From IMG/VR virus record IMGVR_UViG_2660238499_000006, positions 1 to 16,014 of that record: a stretch of 16,014 nt of DNA; one strand, given 5' to 3'. The position numbers and the translations under genes were made by a program. The stretch is from a virus (taxonomy: Duplodnaviria; Heunggongvirae; Uroviricota; Caudoviricetes). Under the pieces are notes generated by a model, which ran no database searches, was not told the origin of the DNA, and saw nothing but the letters and a program-made list of their open reading frames with translations. Below are positions 6,238 through 14,217 of this stretch, piece after piece; position 1 is the first letter of the stretch, and each line of letters begins with the position of its first letter.

Positions 6238-6690
6238 ATGTTACTTAACTGGCAGGGACGCCACTTCATGGAAATAAATCACTCACGAATAACATCGTAC
6301 GAGATTGCGGATTACATGATCCGCACTAAATCTCTTCTATCAGCGAAAGAACTCGCAGCAATTCTTGAAAAGGAACACCCGCATCTGGATGTCGATAAGC
6401 GCGATGTTTATCTGCGCTTAAAGGCTATCGCTGTGTCTAAGTATTCGTCTGTTTTGATTGATGACAGTACACGCCCACGTAGATTTCAGATCCACTCTCT
6501 GAATCCTGAATTCTTTCGCCGTAGCCGCGCTCCGCGCCGGTTTGATGAAAAACTCCAGAATGAACTCTATATGACGCAGGACGAAAAGGAACGCCGGGAG
6601 CACCAGCCTTGGGTAATGGCGCGTCAACTTTTCAATAAGGTGGCCCGTCAGCACCGTCATTACGGTAATGCCACATCCGCACGTATCTGA
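6238..6690 (+). CDS. lpa: Lpa, late promoter activator (gp10-like)
   Basis: 150-aa basic protein immediately upstream of pacA and preceded by a C1-operator-controlled promoter. An alternative start at 6268 (MEINHSR) cannot be excluded. Confidence 0.6.
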   Translation: MLLNWQGRHFMEINHSRITSYEIADYMIRTKSLLSAKELAAILEKEHPHLDVDKRDVYLRLKAIAVSKYSSVLIDDSTRPRRFQIHSLNPEFFRRSRAPRRFDEKLQNELYMTQDEKERREHQPWVMARQLFNKVARQHRHYGNATSARI

Positions 6691-6776
6691 TTGATTGCTT
6701 GCCCGTTCCGGGCCTTTTGACATGTGACTTTCGTTACCCTCGCGTCAAAAAGAGTTTTATACGAAAGGAAGCATAA

Positions 6777-7970
6777 GTGACCTGGGACGATCACAAGAAG
6801 AATTTTGCTCGCCTGGCGCGAGATGGTGGTTACACCATCGCACAGTATGCCGCCGAGTTTAATCTTAACCCTAATACCGCACGTCGTTATCTCCGTGCCT
6901 TCAAAGAAGACACCAGGACTGCGGACAGCCGCAAGCCAAATAAGCCAGTCAGGAAGCCACTAAAAAGCATGATCATTGATCACTCTAATGATCAACATGC
7001 AGGTGATCATATTGCGGCTGAAATAGCGGAAAAACAGAGAGTTAATGCCGTTGTCAGTGCCGCAGTCGAGAATGCGAAGCGCCAAAATAAGCGCATAAAT
7101 GATCGTTCGGATGATCATGACGTGATCAACCGCGCCCACCGGACCTTACGTGATCGCCTGGAACGCGACACCCTGGATGATGATGGTGAACGCTTTGAAT
7201 TCGAAGCTGGCGATTACCTGATAGATAACGTTGAAGCGCGGAAGGCCGCGCGCGCTATGTTGCGTCGGTCCGGGGCCGATGTTCTGGAAACCACTCTTCT
7301 TGAAAAGTCTCTTTCTCATCTCCTTATGCTGGAGAACGCCAGGGATACGTGTATTCGCCTGGTGCAGGAAATGCGCGATCAGCAAAAAGACGATGATGAA
7401 GGTACTCCGCCTGAATACCGTATCGCGAGCATGCTAAACAGCTGTTCCGCGCAGATAAGCAGTCTGATCAACACCATTTACAGCATCCGGAATAACTATC
7501 GAAAAGAAAGCCGGGAGGCGGAAAAGCACGCTTTGTCTATGGGGCAAGCTGGCATTGTTAAGCTGGCATACGAACGAAAGCGTGAAAATAACTGGTCAGT
7601 GCTGGAAGCGGCTGAATTCATCGAGGCGCATGGAGGAAAAGTGCCGCCCCTGATGCTGGAGCAAATCAAAGCCGATCTGCGTGCTCCTAAGACCAATACC
7701 GATGATGAGGAAAACCAAACAGCATCTGGCGCTCCATCACTTGAAGATCTGGATAAAATCGCGCGAGAACGGGCCGCCAGCCGCCGCGCTGATGCGGCAT
7801 TGTGGATTGAGCATCGTAGAGAAGAAATTGCCGATATCGTCGATACAGGTGGTTATGGTGATGTCGATGCGGAAGGCATATCAAACGAAGCATGGCTTGA
7901 ACAGGATCTGGACGAAGACGAGGAGGAAGACGAAGAAGTCACCCGCAAGCTATACGGGGATGATGATTAA
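6777..7970 (+). CDS. pacA: PacA, packaging (pacase) subunit; contains the pac site and an acidic C-terminal tail
   Basis: 397 aa; GTG start with SD aaggaag. pac hexamer clusters lie inside the ORF. C-terminus ...[19 protein letters not shown] overlap with pacB. Confidence 0.85.
6970..7128. other. P1-type pac site: four TGATCA hexamers (6970, 6977, 6989, 7004) and three TGATC(G/A) hexamers (7100, 7112, 7123) flanking the cleavage region; an extra TGATCG at 7151
   Basis: Seven hexamers in a 4+3 arrangement over about 160 bp, each carrying a Dam GATC site, matching the described organisation of the P1 pac site. Confidence 0.85.
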
Positions 7971-9454
7971 TGGCCAGAAGTTGCGTAACGGATCCACGTT
8001 GGCGCGAGCTGGTGGCGCTATATCGTTATGACTGGATTGCGGCCGCTGATGTTTTGTTCGGCAAAACACCTACCTGGCAGCAGGATCTGATTATTGAGTC
8101 TGTGCAGGAACAGGGTAGCAAGACATCTGTTTCGTCTGGTCACGGTACCGGGAAATCAGACATGACTTCTATCATGATCATGTTGTTCATAATCATGTAT
8201 CCCGGTGCCCGCGCCATTATCGTTGCGAACAAAATTCAGCAGGTAATGACCGGTATTTTCAAGTACATCAAGATAAACTGGGCTACTGCCACCAGCCGTT
8301 TTCCATGGCTTGCTGATTATTTTGTTCTGACAGAAACCGCTTTCTATGAGGTTACTGGTAAAGGTGTATGGACTGTAGTACCGAAGGGCTTTCGTCTGGG
8401 AAGTGAAGAAGCTCTCGCCGGTGAACACGCAGATCATCTTCTGTATATTATCGATGAAGCCTCCGGTGTCAGTGATAGAGCTTTCGGTATCATCACCGGT
8501 GCTCTTACCGGACAGGATAACCGCATCTTATTGCTGTCACAGCCTACACGCCCAAGCGGCTATTTCTACGATACACACCATAAACTGGCCAAGCGTCCTG
8601 GTAACCCTGATGGCGTTTATACGGCGATCACGCTTAACAGTGAGGAATCACCGTTGGTAACGCCAGCATTTATCAAAATGAAGCTGGCGGAGTACGGCGG
8701 GCGTGATAACCCTATGTACATGATTAAGGTACGCGGCCTATTCCCTAAATCACAGGATGGCTTCCTTCTTGGACGTGATGAGGTTGAACGTGCAACGCGG
8801 CGGAAAGTCAAGATTGCAAAAGGATGGGGCTGGCTTGCATGTGTGGACGTTGCTGGTGGTACGGGACGGGATAAGTCCGTTATCAATATCATGATGGTGT
8901 CCGGCCAGCGAAATAAACGCCGTGTAATCAACTATCGAATGCTGGAATACACAGACGTTACAGAAACGCAGCTTGCCGCCAAAATTTTCGCAGAATGTAA
9001 TCCTGAGCGATTCCCAAATATCACCATAGCGATAGATGGCGATGGCCTGGGTAAAGCAACGGCGGATCTGATGTACGAGTATTATGGTATTACCGTACAG
9101 CGTATACGCTGGGGTAAAAAGATGCATAGCCGTGAAGATAAGAGCCTGTACTTTGATAAACGTGCTTATGCCAACGTTCAAGCCGCAGAGGCCGTAAAAT
9201 CTGGTCGTATGAGACTGGATAAGGGTAATGAAACTATTGAGGAAGCGTCGAAAATCCCTGTAGGGATTAACTCCGCAGGTCAATGGAAGGTGATGAGTAA
9301 GGAGGATATGAAGAAAAAACTCAACCTGCACTCACCAGACCATTGGGATACATATTGTTTCGCTATGCTGGCGGATTATGTTCCTCAGGATGAAGTGCTT
9401 AGCGTCGAAGACGAAGCGCAGGTTGATGAAGCTCTGGCATGGCTTAATGAATAA
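7970..9454 (+). CDS. pacB: PacB, packaging (pacase/terminase-like) large subunit
   Basis: 494 aa, translationally coupled to pacA. Contains a Walker-A-like [10 protein letters not shown] motif and an acidic region. Confidence 0.85.
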
Positions 9455-9457
9455 ATA

Positions 9458-9474
9458 TTTGCTCTAATAAATTG
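9458..9474 (+). promoter_or_regulatory. C1 operator (tTTGCTCTAATAAATTg) immediately after the pacB stop
   Basis: 16/17 match to the ATTGCTCTAATAAATTT consensus. Confidence 0.7.
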
Positions 9475-9605
9475 TGTTTTTTAACTACCGATGTTACATT
9501 GAACCTGACCTCTTGCGCCTTGAGGCATTTTCGGTTTATGCTTATCAGGCACCTCAGTAAAACGGGTGCCGGGATTGAGACCCCGGATAATGCAAAAGGC
9601 GACAC

Positions 9606-9629
9606 AGACGCCAAAAGCGTCTTTTTTTG
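9606..9629 (+). terminator. Rho-independent terminator (stem agacgc/gcgtct, loop caaaa, T7)
   Basis: GC-containing hairpin followed by TTTTTTT on the plus strand, about 150 nt after pacB. Confidence 0.6.
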
Positions 9630-9813
9630 TGTCATGCCATCGCACAGCCATACGTAGCGTTTAGCTCAGAGATCAATGGTAGTGCTGGCTGGGCTGCCGA
9701 AAGGCAGGCCGGTTCCCTTTTGCGCCGGTAGTCTCAACCCAGTCAGTGCTACCGCCATTGAGATTGAGACCTCACGCGGTAGCTCCTTAAATTAGCAAAA
9801 GGAGGCTGCCATT

Positions 9814-10035
9814 GTGGCTACTATCCCTACCCCTGCTCATCCTGAATTTATCTGGCGCTTTTACTCCTGCCAAAAACGTCACTATCACTTCGTTATTGCA
9901 CCGACAGAAGATGAGGCACGTTCTCAGCTTCCGGATGCTCCCTGTATTTTCTCTGCCCGCTTTTCTACCGATTCGCGCAATTCTCTCAGTTACTGGTGCC
10001 TCCCTGTTAACGCTTCTGCTCAGGAGGGACTATGA
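9814..10035 (+). CDS. Icd-like small protein (candidate host cell-division inhibitor), 73 aa
   Basis: GTG start 8 nt after GGAGG. PEFIWRF...PTEDEARSQL...IFSARF fits the Icd-like F.WRF / TE.EAR pattern as I recall it. Its TGA stop overlaps the ATG of the next ORF (ATGA). Confidence 0.45.
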   Translation: MATIPTPAHPEFIWRFYSCQKRHYHFVIAPTEDEARSQLPDAPCIFSARFSTDSRNSLSYWCLPVNASAQEGL

Positions 10036-10214
10036 GAACGTCATTAGTCACCCGTGAAGAGATGATCGAGGCAATTGAACAGCACACTGCCTGTATCAGT
10101 ACCAGGGATATACCGGGCGTTATTGCCAACTACTTCATTCATGATCACCAAACAACTTTACCGGAGAAAGGACAAACACGCGGTTCACCGCATTCTGCTA
10201 ACCGATATCCGTGA
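10032..10214 (+). CDS. 60-aa ORF translationally coupled to the icd-like gene; possibly the N-terminal remnant of a frame-disrupted Ant1-like start
   Basis: ATG overlaps the upstream stop (ctATGA). The ORF ends at 10214 while the ant frame (+1) is open across the same region. Confidence 0.3.
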   Translation: MRTSLVTREEMIEAIEQHTACISTRDIPGVIANYFIHDHQTTLPEKGQTRGSPHSANRYP

Positions 10215-10284
10215 ATACCTGCTCGAACAGGGTCATCTGAATTACGCAACCGTCGCAGCCGAAGCACGCAAGGAGGCACACAGA

Positions 10285-11148
10285 ATGAAAGCAACTAACG
10301 TTAAATCAGAAAAAATTTATGCACCTTCAGTTCAGGAATCGGAACTGGTGGTTGTTCAGAATCAGCCGGATGAAATTCCCGTTCTGGAATGGCAGGGAGT
10401 ACGTGTCGTGACAACCGAAACTCTTGCTAGAGGGTATGGGGTCGATGAAGCCAATATTCGCAACAATTTGTCTCGCAACCTTGACCGCTTTGAAGAAGGT
10501 AAGCATTACTTTCTTCTAACTGGTTTAAAATTAAGAGAATTTAAGAACAGAGTAACCGGAAGTTACTCTGTTGGTAAGAACGCCAGAAGCCTTACACTCT
10601 GGACAGAGCGCGGCGCTGCACGCATGTCTAAGATCGTGGACACAAATGAAGCGTGGGCATTCTTTGAAAAACTGGAAGACAGCTACTTCCGACAAAAAGA
10701 ACAGCAACCGATCGCAATCCCCCAGACGCTTCCAGAAGCTCTGCGCCTGGCTGCCGAACTGGCTGAACAAAAGCAGCTTCTGGAACAGAAAGCCCACCAG
10801 CTAAATCAGCAGCTGGTGGCCGCCGCTCCTAAAGTCGATTTTGCCGACCGGGTATCAGTAGCTAAAGGGATCCTGATTGGGAATTTTGCAAAGGTTGTTG
10901 GACTTAAGCAAAACGCGCTGTTTGCCTGGTTACGGGAGAACGGCATCCTGATAGCGTCCGGTGGACGTAAAAATGTGCCGTTCCAGCAGTACATCAATGC
11001 GGGGTATTTCACGGTGAAAGAAGTGATGCTGGATGATGAAGATGGCTACCAGATACGGTTGACGCCTCAATTAACGGGTAAAGGCCAGCAGTGGTTGACG
11101 CGTAAACTGCTCGATGCTGGCTTGTTAAAACCGGTGGCGGCTGAATAA
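10285..11148 (+). CDS. Phage antirepressor-like protein (N-terminal ORF6N/Bro-N-like, C-terminal KilAC/Ant-C-like), Ant2-sized (287 aa)
   Basis: Strong SD AGGAGG 8 nt before the ATG at 10285. ...PVLEWQGVRVVTTETLARGYGVDEANIRNNL... and C-terminal ...FADRVSVAKGILIGNFAKVVGLKQNALFAWLRENGILIASGG...YINAGYFTVKEV... are antirepressor-type domain patterns. The frame stays open upstream to 10066. Confidence 0.6.
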   Translation: MKATNVKSEKIYAPSVQESELVVVQNQPDEIPVLEWQGVRVVTTETLARGYGVDEANIRNNLSRNLDRFEEGKHYFLLTGLKLREFKNRVTGSYSVGKNARSLTLWTERGAARMSKIVDTNEAWAFFEKLEDSYFRQKEQQPIAIPQTLPEALRLAAELAEQKQLLEQKAHQLNQQLVAAAPKVDFADRVSVAKGILIGNFAKVVGLKQNALFAWLRENGILIASGGRKNVPFQQYINAGYFTVKEVMLDDEDGYQIRLTPQLTGKGQQWLTRKLLDAGLLKPVAAE

Positions 11149-11155
11149 TGGAAGA

Positions 11156-11177
11156 ATGCCCGGTTGATGCCGGGCAT
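11156..11177. terminator. Hairpin (atgcccgg/ccgggcat) between the convergent ant-like and c1 genes; candidate bidirectional terminator
   Basis: 8-bp stem lying between the ant-like stop (11146-11148) and the c1 stop (11181-11183), with T-rich flanks on both strands. Confidence 0.4.
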
Positions 11178-11180
11178 AAT

Positions 11181-12032
11181 TTATTGCGCGCTTTCGGGGT
11201 TGTCGTTTACTGGCTGCCCCTTCTTGGTTTTACGGCTGCGCGTAACTGATGCGGCTGACTTAACCTTTTTCTCTTCGCGAGTGATGGCAATTTGTTTTTT
11301 TACATTTTCAATATCTGCCAGGCGATATATTTTTGCTTGCGGCCAGCGGTCGCAGATGATCGGTTCTATGGAGTCATAAAGGCTAAATTTTGCTTTTTCG
11401 AATTCACCGTTGATGATAATTCCATCACGGAGAGTTTCATCGCAGATAAACACGCCACACAGTGGCACATGGTAACTAACTGATTTACCATCATTGTAGT
11501 TAGGGCTACTGGAAATGTAGTGGACGCGCAGCATTGTTTCGCTAAAGCCGTGTACGCGCATACGGAATTTTTCATCCTCCGGGTACTGCCTCATTAGCTC
11601 TTTTGTTGCTTCCAGGTTCTCTATGTATTTCGCACTGTGCTCATTGATCCCCGCGCTTTTTTGGATGCGAATGTCCTTATCAATCAGATGAATAATGCGG
11701 CCAGCGGTCATGTTGACGCTGTTCACAGCTTCTGTCTGATAAGTTGTAACCTTGCGCACACCGCGAAGGATGTTAGGCACTGGATATAAAATAGTCTTTG
11801 GGATATTGAGGTCTGGGTACTGTTCCAGTTCCCGCGCCATTAAAGTCCATTTATCAATTTCAGCCTGAATGCTGTCCGTTTCTTTGAACGGTAGAACGAC
11901 AACCGGGCGTACAGGACGACCGTCGCTGGCGGTATCAACGTGTTGGGCGCGTGCAACAGCTTTTTTTAGAAAGAGATCCCTGAAGCTGACGAACTCCTGG
12001 TACAGTTGTTCGCCGTAGACATAATTTATCAT
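11181..12032 (-). CDS. c1: C1 repressor of lysis (primary immunity repressor), 283 aa
   Basis: MINYVYGEQLYQEFVSFRDLFLKK...; length, position next to coi/loxP and the surrounding operators all match P1 C1. Confidence 0.92.
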   Translation of the reverse strand: MINYVYGEQLYQEFVSFRDLFLKKAVARAQHVDTASDGRPVRPVVVLPFKETDSIQAEIDKWTLMARELEQYPDLNIPKTILYPVPNILRGVRKVTTYQTEAVNSVNMTAGRIIHLIDKDIRIQKSAGINEHSAKYIENLEATKELMRQYPEDEKFRMRVHGFSETMLRVHYISSSPNYNDGKSVSYHVPLCGVFICDETLRDGIIINGEFEKAKFSLYDSIEPIICDRWPQAKIYRLADIENVKKQIAITREEKKVKSAASVTRSRKTKKGQPVNDNPESAQ

Positions 12033-12126
12033 TGATCCTCCTCCAGAATTGACATGGTCAATAACGCCCGGCTGAGAAAACCGGTCATTACTGACCTATA
12101 TTATAGAGGGATCAAACAAAAATAAT

Positions 12127-12143
12127 AGATTTATTAGTGCATT
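12127..12143 (-). promoter_or_regulatory. C1 operator (reverse orientation, about 14/17) between coi and c1
   Basis: agATTTATTAGtGCAtT compared with AAATTTATTAGAGCAAT. Confidence 0.5.
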
Positions 12144-12352
12144 TATTGTGAGTCTAACTGGTTAGTTGCCATGAGATATTCGATTGTGTCAGTGAGGTCA
12201 TCCAGGTCGTCTTGGGTGATGCGGTACTCCTGATTGGATATCTTTGAGTAGTGTTCAGCAATGGCGCGGGCAGCGTCGGTTTCGGCAGGGTCTACAGATA
12301 AAGCGTTAGAGCAATGTCTAACGTCGTCGATGGTTGGTTGAATGAAAGCCAT
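12143..12352 (-). CDS. coi: Coi, C1 inactivator, 69 aa
   Basis: 69-aa acidic ORF (MAFIQPTIDDVRH...) directly upstream of c1 on the same strand, with SD GAGG 7 nt before the ATG. Confidence 0.8.
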   Translation of the reverse strand: MAFIQPTIDDVRHCSNALSVDPAETDAARAIAEHYSKISNQEYRITQDDLDDLTDTIEYLMATNQLDSQ

Positions 12353-12590
12353 AATTATGCCTCACTGTATTGACAACACAGAGCCTGAAGCTCTGACCTA
12401 CTGTTTCACCCATGATCCATGCTGGGGTAATCTAACAACATTGCGCTGTGTGTAAGATGAGCAATGCATAGCTGTAATGCCGTTGTATAAGGTTTCCCTG
12501 TTTGCTCATTTCCTTCTGAGCCGCTCTACAACGCTGAAGACACATTAAATAGTGAATCCAAAGTCGTATTACGTAACGGCGGCAAAACTA

Positions 12591-12607
12591 TAATTTATTA
12601 GAGCAAT
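12591..12607 (-). promoter_or_regulatory. C1 operator (reverse orientation, 16/17), overlapped by a minus-strand TTGACA (12609-12614) and a plus-strand TATAAT (12589-12594)
   Basis: tAATTTATTAGAGCAAT. Candidate immC promoter/operator driving coi-c1. Confidence 0.7.
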
Positions 12608-12673
12608 TGTCAAACAACTATGAAAAACAATCCAGTTTTTAGCTGGTGGAGTGGGATTTTTCTCTCAAAATTT

Positions 12674-12690
12674 ATTGCTCTAATAATTCT
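12674..12690 (+). promoter_or_regulatory. C1 operator (ATTGCTCTAATAATTCT, 14/17)
   Basis: Direct match to the operator core, 44 bp left of loxP. Confidence 0.65.
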
Positions 12691-12733
12691 TGATTTTTGT
12701 GCGCAGCTGGACGTAAACTCCTCTTCGGACCTA

Positions 12734-12767
12734 ATAACTTCGTATAGCATACATTATACGAAGTTAT
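12734..12767. other. loxP site (ATAACTTCGTATA-GCATACAT-TATACGAAGTTAT)
   Basis: Exact 34-bp canonical loxP: two 13-bp inverted arms around the asymmetric 8-bp spacer. Confidence 0.98.
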
Positions 12768-12786
12768 ATTAAGGGTTATTGAATAT

Positions 12787-12859
12787 GATCAATTTACCTG
12801 TAAATCCATACAGTTCAATACCTTGGCAGGTCAAATAGTGATCACTTGATCATTTGATC
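12787..12859. promoter_or_regulatory. Cluster of four Dam GATC sites in the cra/cre upstream region (candidate methylation-sensitive promoter)
   Basis: GATC at 12787, 12840, 12848 and 12856; three lie within 20 bp (gtGATCacttGATCatttGATCaagg). Confidence 0.5.
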
Positions 12860-12956
12860 AAGGTTGCGCTACGTAAAATCTGTGAAAAATTGGCGGTGTC
12901 AGTCCTACAGATTTCGCGTAGCGCACTTAGCACCACCAATCAATCAGAGGTGAAAA

Positions 12957-13178
12957 ATGGGATATTCAGCTGCTAAAGTGTCCACTCATCTTGAGCTTGA
13001 GAAAAATCGTGGTTACTGGCGGGCAAAAGGGTTTGATCGTGATAGTTGTCAACTGTCATTATCGCGCGGTGAAGAAAAGATAGAACGCAGTCGCGGTCGT
13101 TGGCGTTTCTATGACGAGAACCATAAACAGGTAAAGGCAGAGCCGATCCTGTACACTTTACTTAAAACCATTATCTGA
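12957..13178 (+). CDS. cra: Cra (cre-associated small protein)
   Basis: 73-aa ORF with SD gaggtg, immediately upstream of cre as in P1. Confidence 0.65.
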   Translation: MGYSAAKVSTHLELEKNRGYWRAKGFDRDSCQLSLSRGEEKIERSRGRWRFYDENHKQVKAEPILYTLLKTII

Positions 13179-13185
13179 GTGTTAA

Positions 13186-14217
13186 ATGTCCAATTTACTG
13201 ACCGTACACCAAAATTTGCCTGCATTGCCGGTCGATGCAACGAGTGATGAGGTTCGCAAGAACCTGATGGACATGTTCAGGGATCGCCAGGCGTTTTCTG
13301 AGCATACCTGGAAAATGCTTCTGTCCGTTTGCCGGTCATGGGCGGCATGGTGCAAGTTGAATAACCGGAAATGGTTTCCCGCAGAACCTGAAGATGTTCG
13401 CGATTATCTTCTATATCTTCAGGCGCGCGGTCTGGCAGTGAAAACTATCCAGCAACATTTGGGCCAGCTAAATATGCTTCATCGTCGGTCCGGGCTGCAA
13501 CGACCAAGTGACAGCAATGCTGTTTCACTCGTCATGCGACGGATCCGAAAAGAAAACGTTGATGCCGGTGAGCGTGCAAAACAGGCGCTGGCGTTCGAAC
13601 GCACTGATTTCGACCAGGTTCGTTCACTCATGGAAAATAGCGATCGCTGCCAGGATATACGTAATCTGGCATTTCTGGGGATTGCTTATAACACCCTGTT
13701 ACGTATAGCCGAAATTTCTAGGATCAGAGTTAAAGATATCTCACGTACTGACGGTGGGAGAATGTTAATCCATATTGGCAGAACGAAAACGCTGGTTAGC
13801 ACCGCTGGTGTAGAGAAGGCACTTAGTCTGGGGGTAACTAAACTGGTTGAGCGATGGATTTCTGTCTCTGGTGTGGCTGATGATCCGAATAACTACTTGT
13901 TTTGCCGTGTCAGAAAAAATGGTGTTGCCGCGCCATCTGCCACCAGCCAGCTATCAACTCGCGCCCTGGAAGGGATTTTTGAAGCAACTCACCGATTGAT
14001 TTTCGGGGCTAAGGATGACTCTGGCCAGAGGTACCTGGCCTGGTCTGGACACAGTGCCCGTGTCGGAGCCGCGCGAGATATGGCCCGCGCCGGAGTTTCA
14101 ATACCGGAGATCATGCAAGCTGGTGGCTGGACCAACGTAAATATTGTCATGAACTATATCCGTAACCTGGATAGTGAAACAGGGGCAATGGTGCGCCTGC
14201 TGGAAGATGGCTATTAG
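13186..14217 (+). CDS. cre: Cre site-specific tyrosine recombinase, 343 aa
   Basis: MSNLLTVHQNLPALPVDATSDEVRKNLMDMFRDRQAFSEHTWKMLLSVCRSWAAWCKLNNRKWFPAEPEDVRDYLLYLQARGLAVKTIQQHLGQLNMLHRRSGL...; start lies 436 bp from the loxP centre, as in P1 numbering. Confidence 0.98.
   Translation: MSNLLTVHQNLPALPVDATSDEVRKNLMDMFRDRQAFSEHTWKMLLSVCRSWAAWCKLNNRKWFPAEPEDVRDYLLYLQARGLAVKTIQQHLGQLNMLHRRSGLQRPSDSNAVSLVMRRIRKENVDAGERAKQALAFERTDFDQVRSLMENSDRCQDIRNLAFLGIAYNTLLRIAEISRIRVKDISRTDGGRMLIHIGRTKTLVSTAGVEKALSLGVTKLVERWISVSGVADDPNNYLFCRVRKNGVAAPSATSQLSTRALEGIFEATHRLIFGAKDDSGQRYLAWSGHSARVGAARDMARAGVSIPEIMQAGGWTNVNIVMNYIRNLDSETGAMVRLLEDGY

Follow-up and report, generated by a model that had tools for sequence, protein, structure and literature searches.

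A four-base tandem duplication in the ant1 frame of a P1-like phage-plasmid

Results

An icd-ant module between pacB and c1

The stretch of DNA analysed here (the window; all 16,014 nucleotides of IMG/VR record IMGVR_UViG_2660238499_000006) comes from a P1-like phage-plasmid of the RCS47/JL22 type. Over 1.6 kb (9600-11200) it shares 98.8% identity with Escherichia phage JL22 and 94.3% with RCS47, both members of Punavirus. Its genes follow in the order pacA/pacB, c4 RNA, icd, ant, then c1 and coi on the opposite strand, and cre. pacA/pacB (6777-9454) are the upstream neighbours of c4-icd-ant. The c4 antisense RNA gene (9672-9759, plus strand) was recognized as a full-length match to Rfam RF01695 (75 bits against a gathering score of 45), upstream of icd and ant and in the same orientation as both. 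On the far side of ant, a consensus scan found a terminator-like hairpin where ant and c1 converge (11156-11177, plus strand; a 9-pair stem with 6 GC pairs, a pattern match only). The c1 repressor gene (11181-12032, minus strand) is intact, and its 283-aa product, the presumed target of the antirepressor, matches NCBIfam NF041318 phage_rep_C1 with 612 bits (cutoff 500). cre occupies 13186-14217.

Whereas the immI region of P1 lies beside sim and kilA-repL, the module in the window sits between pacB and c1, where a c4-icd-ant insertion is already known from RCS47-type elements (PMC6906374). JL22 carries a canonical icd-ant1-kilA-repL module elsewhere in its genome (43650-46744), and its pacB-c1 module is thus a second immI-like copy. 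With JL22 as a proxy, as the window covers only 16 kb, the window module is probably also a second, redundant copy. Several IMG/VR contigs contain two or three ant paralogs each.

Just 5' of c4, the window also matches isrK (Rfam RF01394; 9549-9627, 58 bits against a gathering score of 50), with a terminator-like hairpin (9606-9622) and a T-run at the 3' end of the isrK-like element. As this match adjoins c4 upstream, the element belongs to the extra immI-like module. In L005, one of the loci retrieved for comparison, two 39-aa ORFs (2507-2626 and 2645-2764, corresponding to window ~9538-9657 and ~9676-9795) overlie the isrK-like and c4 RNA genes, and one of the two has a weak 'Phage_ASH' match. 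These ORFs are likely protein calls on RNA genes, and the PGAP label 'ash family protein' in related records probably sits over the isrK-like and c4 genes too.

Two reading frames downstream of icd

The icd-like gene (9814-10035, plus strand) starts with GTG, preceded by AGGAGG at 9801-9806, and encodes 73 aa with 81% identity to P1 Icd and a match to NCBIfam NF033153 (E = 2.6e-13). The homologous 222-nt ORF of phage 673R5 carries an Icd annotation. In JL22, gp121 ('hypothetical protein', 246 nt; 1713-1958 of locus L001, window 9812-10057) was annotated in another frame; it is the frame of 9814-10035, not that of gp121, which matches P1 Icd and NF033153.

The icd stop codon (TGA, 10033-10035) overlaps an ATG (10032-10034) in an ATGA (10032-10035, plus strand), an architecture typical of translational coupling. 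The first-pass annotation had compared this arrangement to P1 icd-ant1, and the comparison holds, as P1 has the identical 4-base overlap (icd end at locus position 1311, ant1 start at 1308). Its description of the two frames that follow, one coupled and ending after 60 codons at 10214, the other open from 10066 with a strong internal Shine-Dalgarno (SD) sequence and an ATG at 10285, was borne out as well. Translation of the truncated ant1 frame (10032-10214, plus strand; TGA at 10212-10214) gives a 60-aa product made up of Ant1 residues 1-35 (MRTSLVTREEMIEAIEQHTACISTRDIPGVIANYF), identical to the N-terminus of JL22 Ant, and 25 out-of-frame residues (36-60), which are conserved Ant1 codons read in the wrong frame. 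The ant frame, in +1 relative to it, follows a TGA at 10063-10065, stays open from 10066 to 11148 and reads ...FMITKQLYRRKDKHAVHRILLTDIREYLLEQGHLNYATVAAEARKEAHR, the same as in intact homologs. The rest of the Ant1-specific N-terminal extension (codons 36-83; 10138-10284, plus strand) is therefore displaced into the +1 frame and is not translated from the ant1 start.

A TTCA duplication accounts for the frame discontinuity

Alignment of 9990-10330 with JL22, RCS47 and 673R5 located the lesion. The sequences are otherwise nearly identical, but the relatives read ACTAC-TTCA-TGATC where the window reads ACTAC-TTCA-TTCA-TGATC (duplicated allele: TTCATTCA), and the window is alone among the four in having the extra bases. 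This 4-bp tandem duplication, TTCA|TTCA at 10134-10141 on the plus strand (equivalently TCAT|TCAT at 10135-10142), shifts the Ant1-like frame by a net +1 after Phe35. When 10134-10137 was deleted in silico, a continuous ORF of 370 aa resulted, collinear with P1 Ant1 and with the short-form ATG at codon 84, as in P1. As judged from the sequence, the lesion is a discrete mutation and not a chance pattern. The first-pass annotation had considered a single-base frameshift between about 10100 and 10214 that leaves only an Ant2-like form, and had proposed an alignment with homologs to see whether one base restores a continuous ORF of ~372 aa. The interval, the remaining short form and the restoration (370 aa) stand, whereas the lesion comprises four bases (net +1) and not one. 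Of the aligned records, that of phage vB_EcoM-673R5 (L003) has 49 gaps relative to the window over 4.4 kb, a fragmented c1 and a shortened ant CDS, and looks error-rich as an assembly rather than biologically divergent.

A continuous ORF is the rule among relatives. We sampled 80 IMG/VR loci that encode relatives and found an uninterrupted ORF of 320-384 codons in 74; every one of these starts at an ATGA and has an ATG at codon 84 with AAGGAGG at equal distance upstream (74/74 each). Of the remaining six, four run off a contig end and two are rearranged at the 5' end. The ant CDSs of JL22 and RCS47 run continuously from the ATGA (1113 and 1116 nt), and records of the RCS47/JL22/pTZ20_1P type have the ORF intact, at 370-371 aa. 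In complete E. coli genomes, taken as a spread sample, full-length single-piece matches were 1113 or 1119 bases long, all multiples of 3, and one slightly clipped match fits 1113 bases. Variable sites in the 83-codon extension of the IMG/VR loci are distributed 30/22/63 over the codon positions, indicating purifying selection on the extension as protein. As one continuous ORF with in-frame long and short starts is missing from the window yet occurs in the 74 relatives and reappears after removal of the four bases, the window represents a mutant member of this family and not a different family.

The Ant2-like short form (10285-11148, plus strand) is intact. Its 287 aa contain the whole ORF6N and ANT/KilAC domains (PF10543, E = 1.8e-18; PF03374, E = 1.5e-31), and its ATG, which is codon 84 in JL22 and aligns with the Ant2 start within P1 Ant1, is preceded by AAGGAGG (10271-10277, plus strand), seven bases before the ATG at 10285. 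RNA around this internal start has less structure than its shuffled counterparts (z = +1.68). With a strong SD and weakly folding RNA retained at the internal start, the short form should still be made. RNA structure hiding the Ant2 start was considered and rejected, as the region folds more weakly than the shuffled controls. A PDB sequence search with the restored protein returned only marginal L9 matches (E = 0.008), which we disregarded.

The duplicated allele is rare and forms one haplotype

The duplication was not found in 24 phage records, 337 plasmid records, 348 complete E. coli records or the 74 IMG/VR loci, and the best match of a 156-base probe to the plasmid and E. coli records, at 97.4% identity (152/156), differs by exactly the 4-base gap. 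The allele was likewise absent from 5426 complete E. coli genomes, and exact-pattern scans for the duplication junction in viral and genome contig collections gave no hits. The exact 60-aa peptide, in turn, is recorded on 58 contigs, from E. coli KTE108, Logan runs and ENA assemblies. All six loci that we retrieved carry the duplication; they come from NCBI GCA_000408645.1, two ENA metagenome assemblies and three Logan SRA runs, that is, from different projects and assemblers.

The two carrier loci that reach past cre (L004 and L005) match the window exactly over 7905-12767, and the four shorter ones match it to their ends (~10816-10857), apart from one substitution at 8838 in L008. Taken by sequence, the six carriers are one haplotype. 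L005 and L007 diverge from the window in pacA, and L005 does so again in 12768-13100; such differences around a shared core point to a single origin followed by recombination in the flanks. A search for a wild-type ancestor of this exact haplotype found none, the nearest intact relative having at least 19 differing sites in 3.9 kb. In some metagenome variants of the peptide (P0002, P0005 and P0006), the TGA at 10212-10214 is read through, with Arg in its place, giving 65-88 aa. These stop-loss variants show that the allele has gained further changes.

Could the extra TTCA be an artefact of sequencing or assembly, the source genome having a single TTCA and a continuous ant1? Its absence from every curated collection searched would fit such an error. 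However, the same duplication recurs in independent assemblies, the exact peptide is present on 58 contigs from independent sources, minor variants of the peptide exist, and the site is not a homopolymer and hence not a typical error site, so that we give an artefact almost no credence. The resequencing check that had been proposed for an indel in 10100-10214 is in effect answered by these assemblies, which reproduce the duplication. Together, these data identify a real and circulating allele, confined to one lineage, in which a known gene of a known operon type has lost function; in itself this is ordinary.

Recoding and a separate small gene are poor explanations

The two frames could also reflect recoding or a separate coupled gene, both of which the first-pass annotation had raised. 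Full-length Ant1 might be recovered by +1 frameshifting, by a +4 hop of tRNA-Phe from the TTC at 10134 to that at 10138, or by an SD-less start at Met36 (ATG 10141). The duplication does provide identical take-off and landing codons four bases apart, such that a hop would yield precisely the wild-type sequence, and directly after the repeat comes the native Met36 ATG, in the ant frame. Against this, the frame overlap contains no X XXY YYZ slippery heptamer, no homopolymer of at least four bases and no +1 re-pairing codon ahead of a stop or rare codon; the codon following the take-off site is an ordinary ATT, and no SD precedes 10141. Moreover, the allele is derived and rare, and a conserved two-frame arrangement was not seen among homologs, which are single-frame. 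As they read one continuous frame, no recoding signal can have evolved. The claim that the long form needs recoding is thus not supported, and restoration of full-length Ant1 by any of these routes is very improbable, although a trace hop or SD-less start is conceivable.

A functional small gene coupled to icd fares no better. The 60-aa ORF has a good coupled ATGA start and is retained on a repeatedly sampled haplotype. Yet the peptide joins 35 native residues to 25 that come from conserved Ant1 codons read out of frame, matches no Pfam or NCBIfam family, and occurs only on the duplication-bearing haplotype, while all the other relatives encode a continuous ORF. Its cluster at 90% identity has six members, each derived from this one frameshift; some no longer have the stop. 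Since neither conservation beyond one haplotype nor a recognizable family was found, a separate coupled gene is most unlikely. We instead regard it as highly probable that the 4-bp duplication broke the Ant1-like long form and left a 60-residue stub together with an intact Ant2-like form.

Other lesions in the 5' part of ant

Several retrieved loci have independent lesions in the same region that likewise remove the long form, each with the 287-aa ORF intact: a +A frameshift near window 10228 (L015), an IS3-family insertion with a 5-bp target duplication at 10247-10251 (L014), IS ends abutting window 10200 (L011/L012) and 10035 (L064), and a deletion that joins ~6435 to 10201 and removes pacA, pacB, c4 and icd (L038). 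Most of these were found through their 287-aa products; the sample is therefore biased by ascertainment and shows no enrichment.

Such independent lesions that spare the 287-aa ORF, together with the mcr-1 insertion in ant1 of P7-like plasmids (PMC5786510), would be consistent with adaptive loss, in which knockout of the long form is selected as it stabilizes the plasmid-prophage state while Ant2 is retained for a separate role. The duplication is present in carriers that differ in their pacA allele, so it has persisted through recombination. However, besides the ascertainment bias, the unbiased IMG/VR sample has 74 intact loci out of 76 that are informative, the two exceptions being matched by about one rearranged body, and the allele is missing from the 5426 complete E. 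coli genomes. Selection of this kind is compatible with loss of the long form through the duplication, but we consider it unlikely, if less so than the alternatives above.

Discussion

Overall, our analysis suggests the following model. In intact relatives, ant is a single ORF of ~370 codons that begins at an ATG overlapping the icd stop, and a second, in-frame start at codon 84, preceded by an AAGGAGG of its own, yields the short form, as in P1 icd-ant1/ant2. The TTCA duplication shifts the ant1 frame after Phe35, such that ribosomes coupled from icd would make the 60-aa stub and terminate at 10214, whereas the 287-aa short form would be initiated independently, 70 nt downstream of the stub's stop. 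On this evidence, the most likely outcome is that Ant1 is lost and Ant2 still made.

What this would mean for immunity depends on the division of labour between the two forms, for which we relied on the P1 GenBank annotation and secondary citations. The P1 antirepressor has been described as a heterodimeric Ant1/Ant2 complex (PMC8546580), and the P1 annotation refers to an 'Ant1/Ant2/C1 complex'. As the antirepressor is thus described as a complex of both forms acting on C1, absence of the long form would leave the window module with weaker antirepression or none, and its antirepressor activity is probably lost or reduced. Such a loss would be tolerated, as ant1 and ant2 were non-essential in a P1 CRISPRi screen (PMC10695390) and the module is probably a second copy beside a canonical immI of the kind seen in JL22. 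We found no account of the activity of an Ant2-like protein alone in the literature consulted, and the allele offers a natural Ant2-only variant for asking what the short form does by itself.

The main importance of the finding lies in annotation. The 60-aa 'hypothetical protein' (EOW30115.1) and the 287-aa 'DNA-binding protein Roi' (EOW30116.1) of E. coli KTE108 are two pieces of one frameshifted ant1/ant2 gene. The allele is also a further case of an antirepressor inactivated in a P1-like phage-plasmid, a loss that could lower induction and favour the plasmid lifestyle. A bolder reading, which we think distinctly improbable, is that phage-plasmids with two immI modules repeatedly lose the Ant1-specific 5' segment in a non-neutral manner while keeping the short form, and that the duplication could act as a reversible switch. 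If so, the Ant2-like protein would be a stand-alone or modulatory factor, for example by titrating the partner from the other module, and the tandem duplication could switch antirepressor output reversibly and at low frequency, via precise deletion or a ribosome hop.

Comparison with known systems

The closest model is immI of P1, where the GenBank annotation gives a 73-aa icd and a 347-aa ant1 with a 4-base overlap, and ant2 beginning at ant1 codon 84. The window module shares with it the c4 RNA upstream (in P1, c4 RNA represses icd/ant translation, and the c4 match in the window likewise lies 5' of icd), an Icd of equal length and 81% identity, the ATGA overlap, the 83-aa extension, the codon-84 start with its own SD and a C-terminal ANT/KilAC domain that is ~90% identical. 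The intact protein nearest to the restored one, JL22 Ant, can be aligned with P1 Ant1 along the entire protein (57% identity, E = 2e-131), with ~60% identity across the Ant1-specific extension (83 aa). The window differs from P1 in its frameshifted long form, in the middle of the protein, which is an ORF6N domain here, unlike the central part of P1 Ant, and in the position of the module between pacB and c1 instead of by sim and kilA-repL. Knowledge of immI itself is unchanged by the allele.

Programmed +1 frameshifting, as in prfB, and ribosome hopping resemble the locus in that overlapping frames would give a full-length protein when fused, but the window lacks a shift site, a stimulatory element and the conservation of two frames in homologs. 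In P7-like mcr-1 plasmids, a P1/P7-type long-form antirepressor has likewise been inactivated and the element persists as a plasmid; there, an ISApl1-mcr-1 insertion interrupts ant1 of the canonical immI, in contrast to a 4-bp duplication in an extra module. With the ant genes of RCS47/JL22/pTZ20_1P-type elements, finally, the window shares location, gene order and sequence, and what sets it apart is its extra TTCA.
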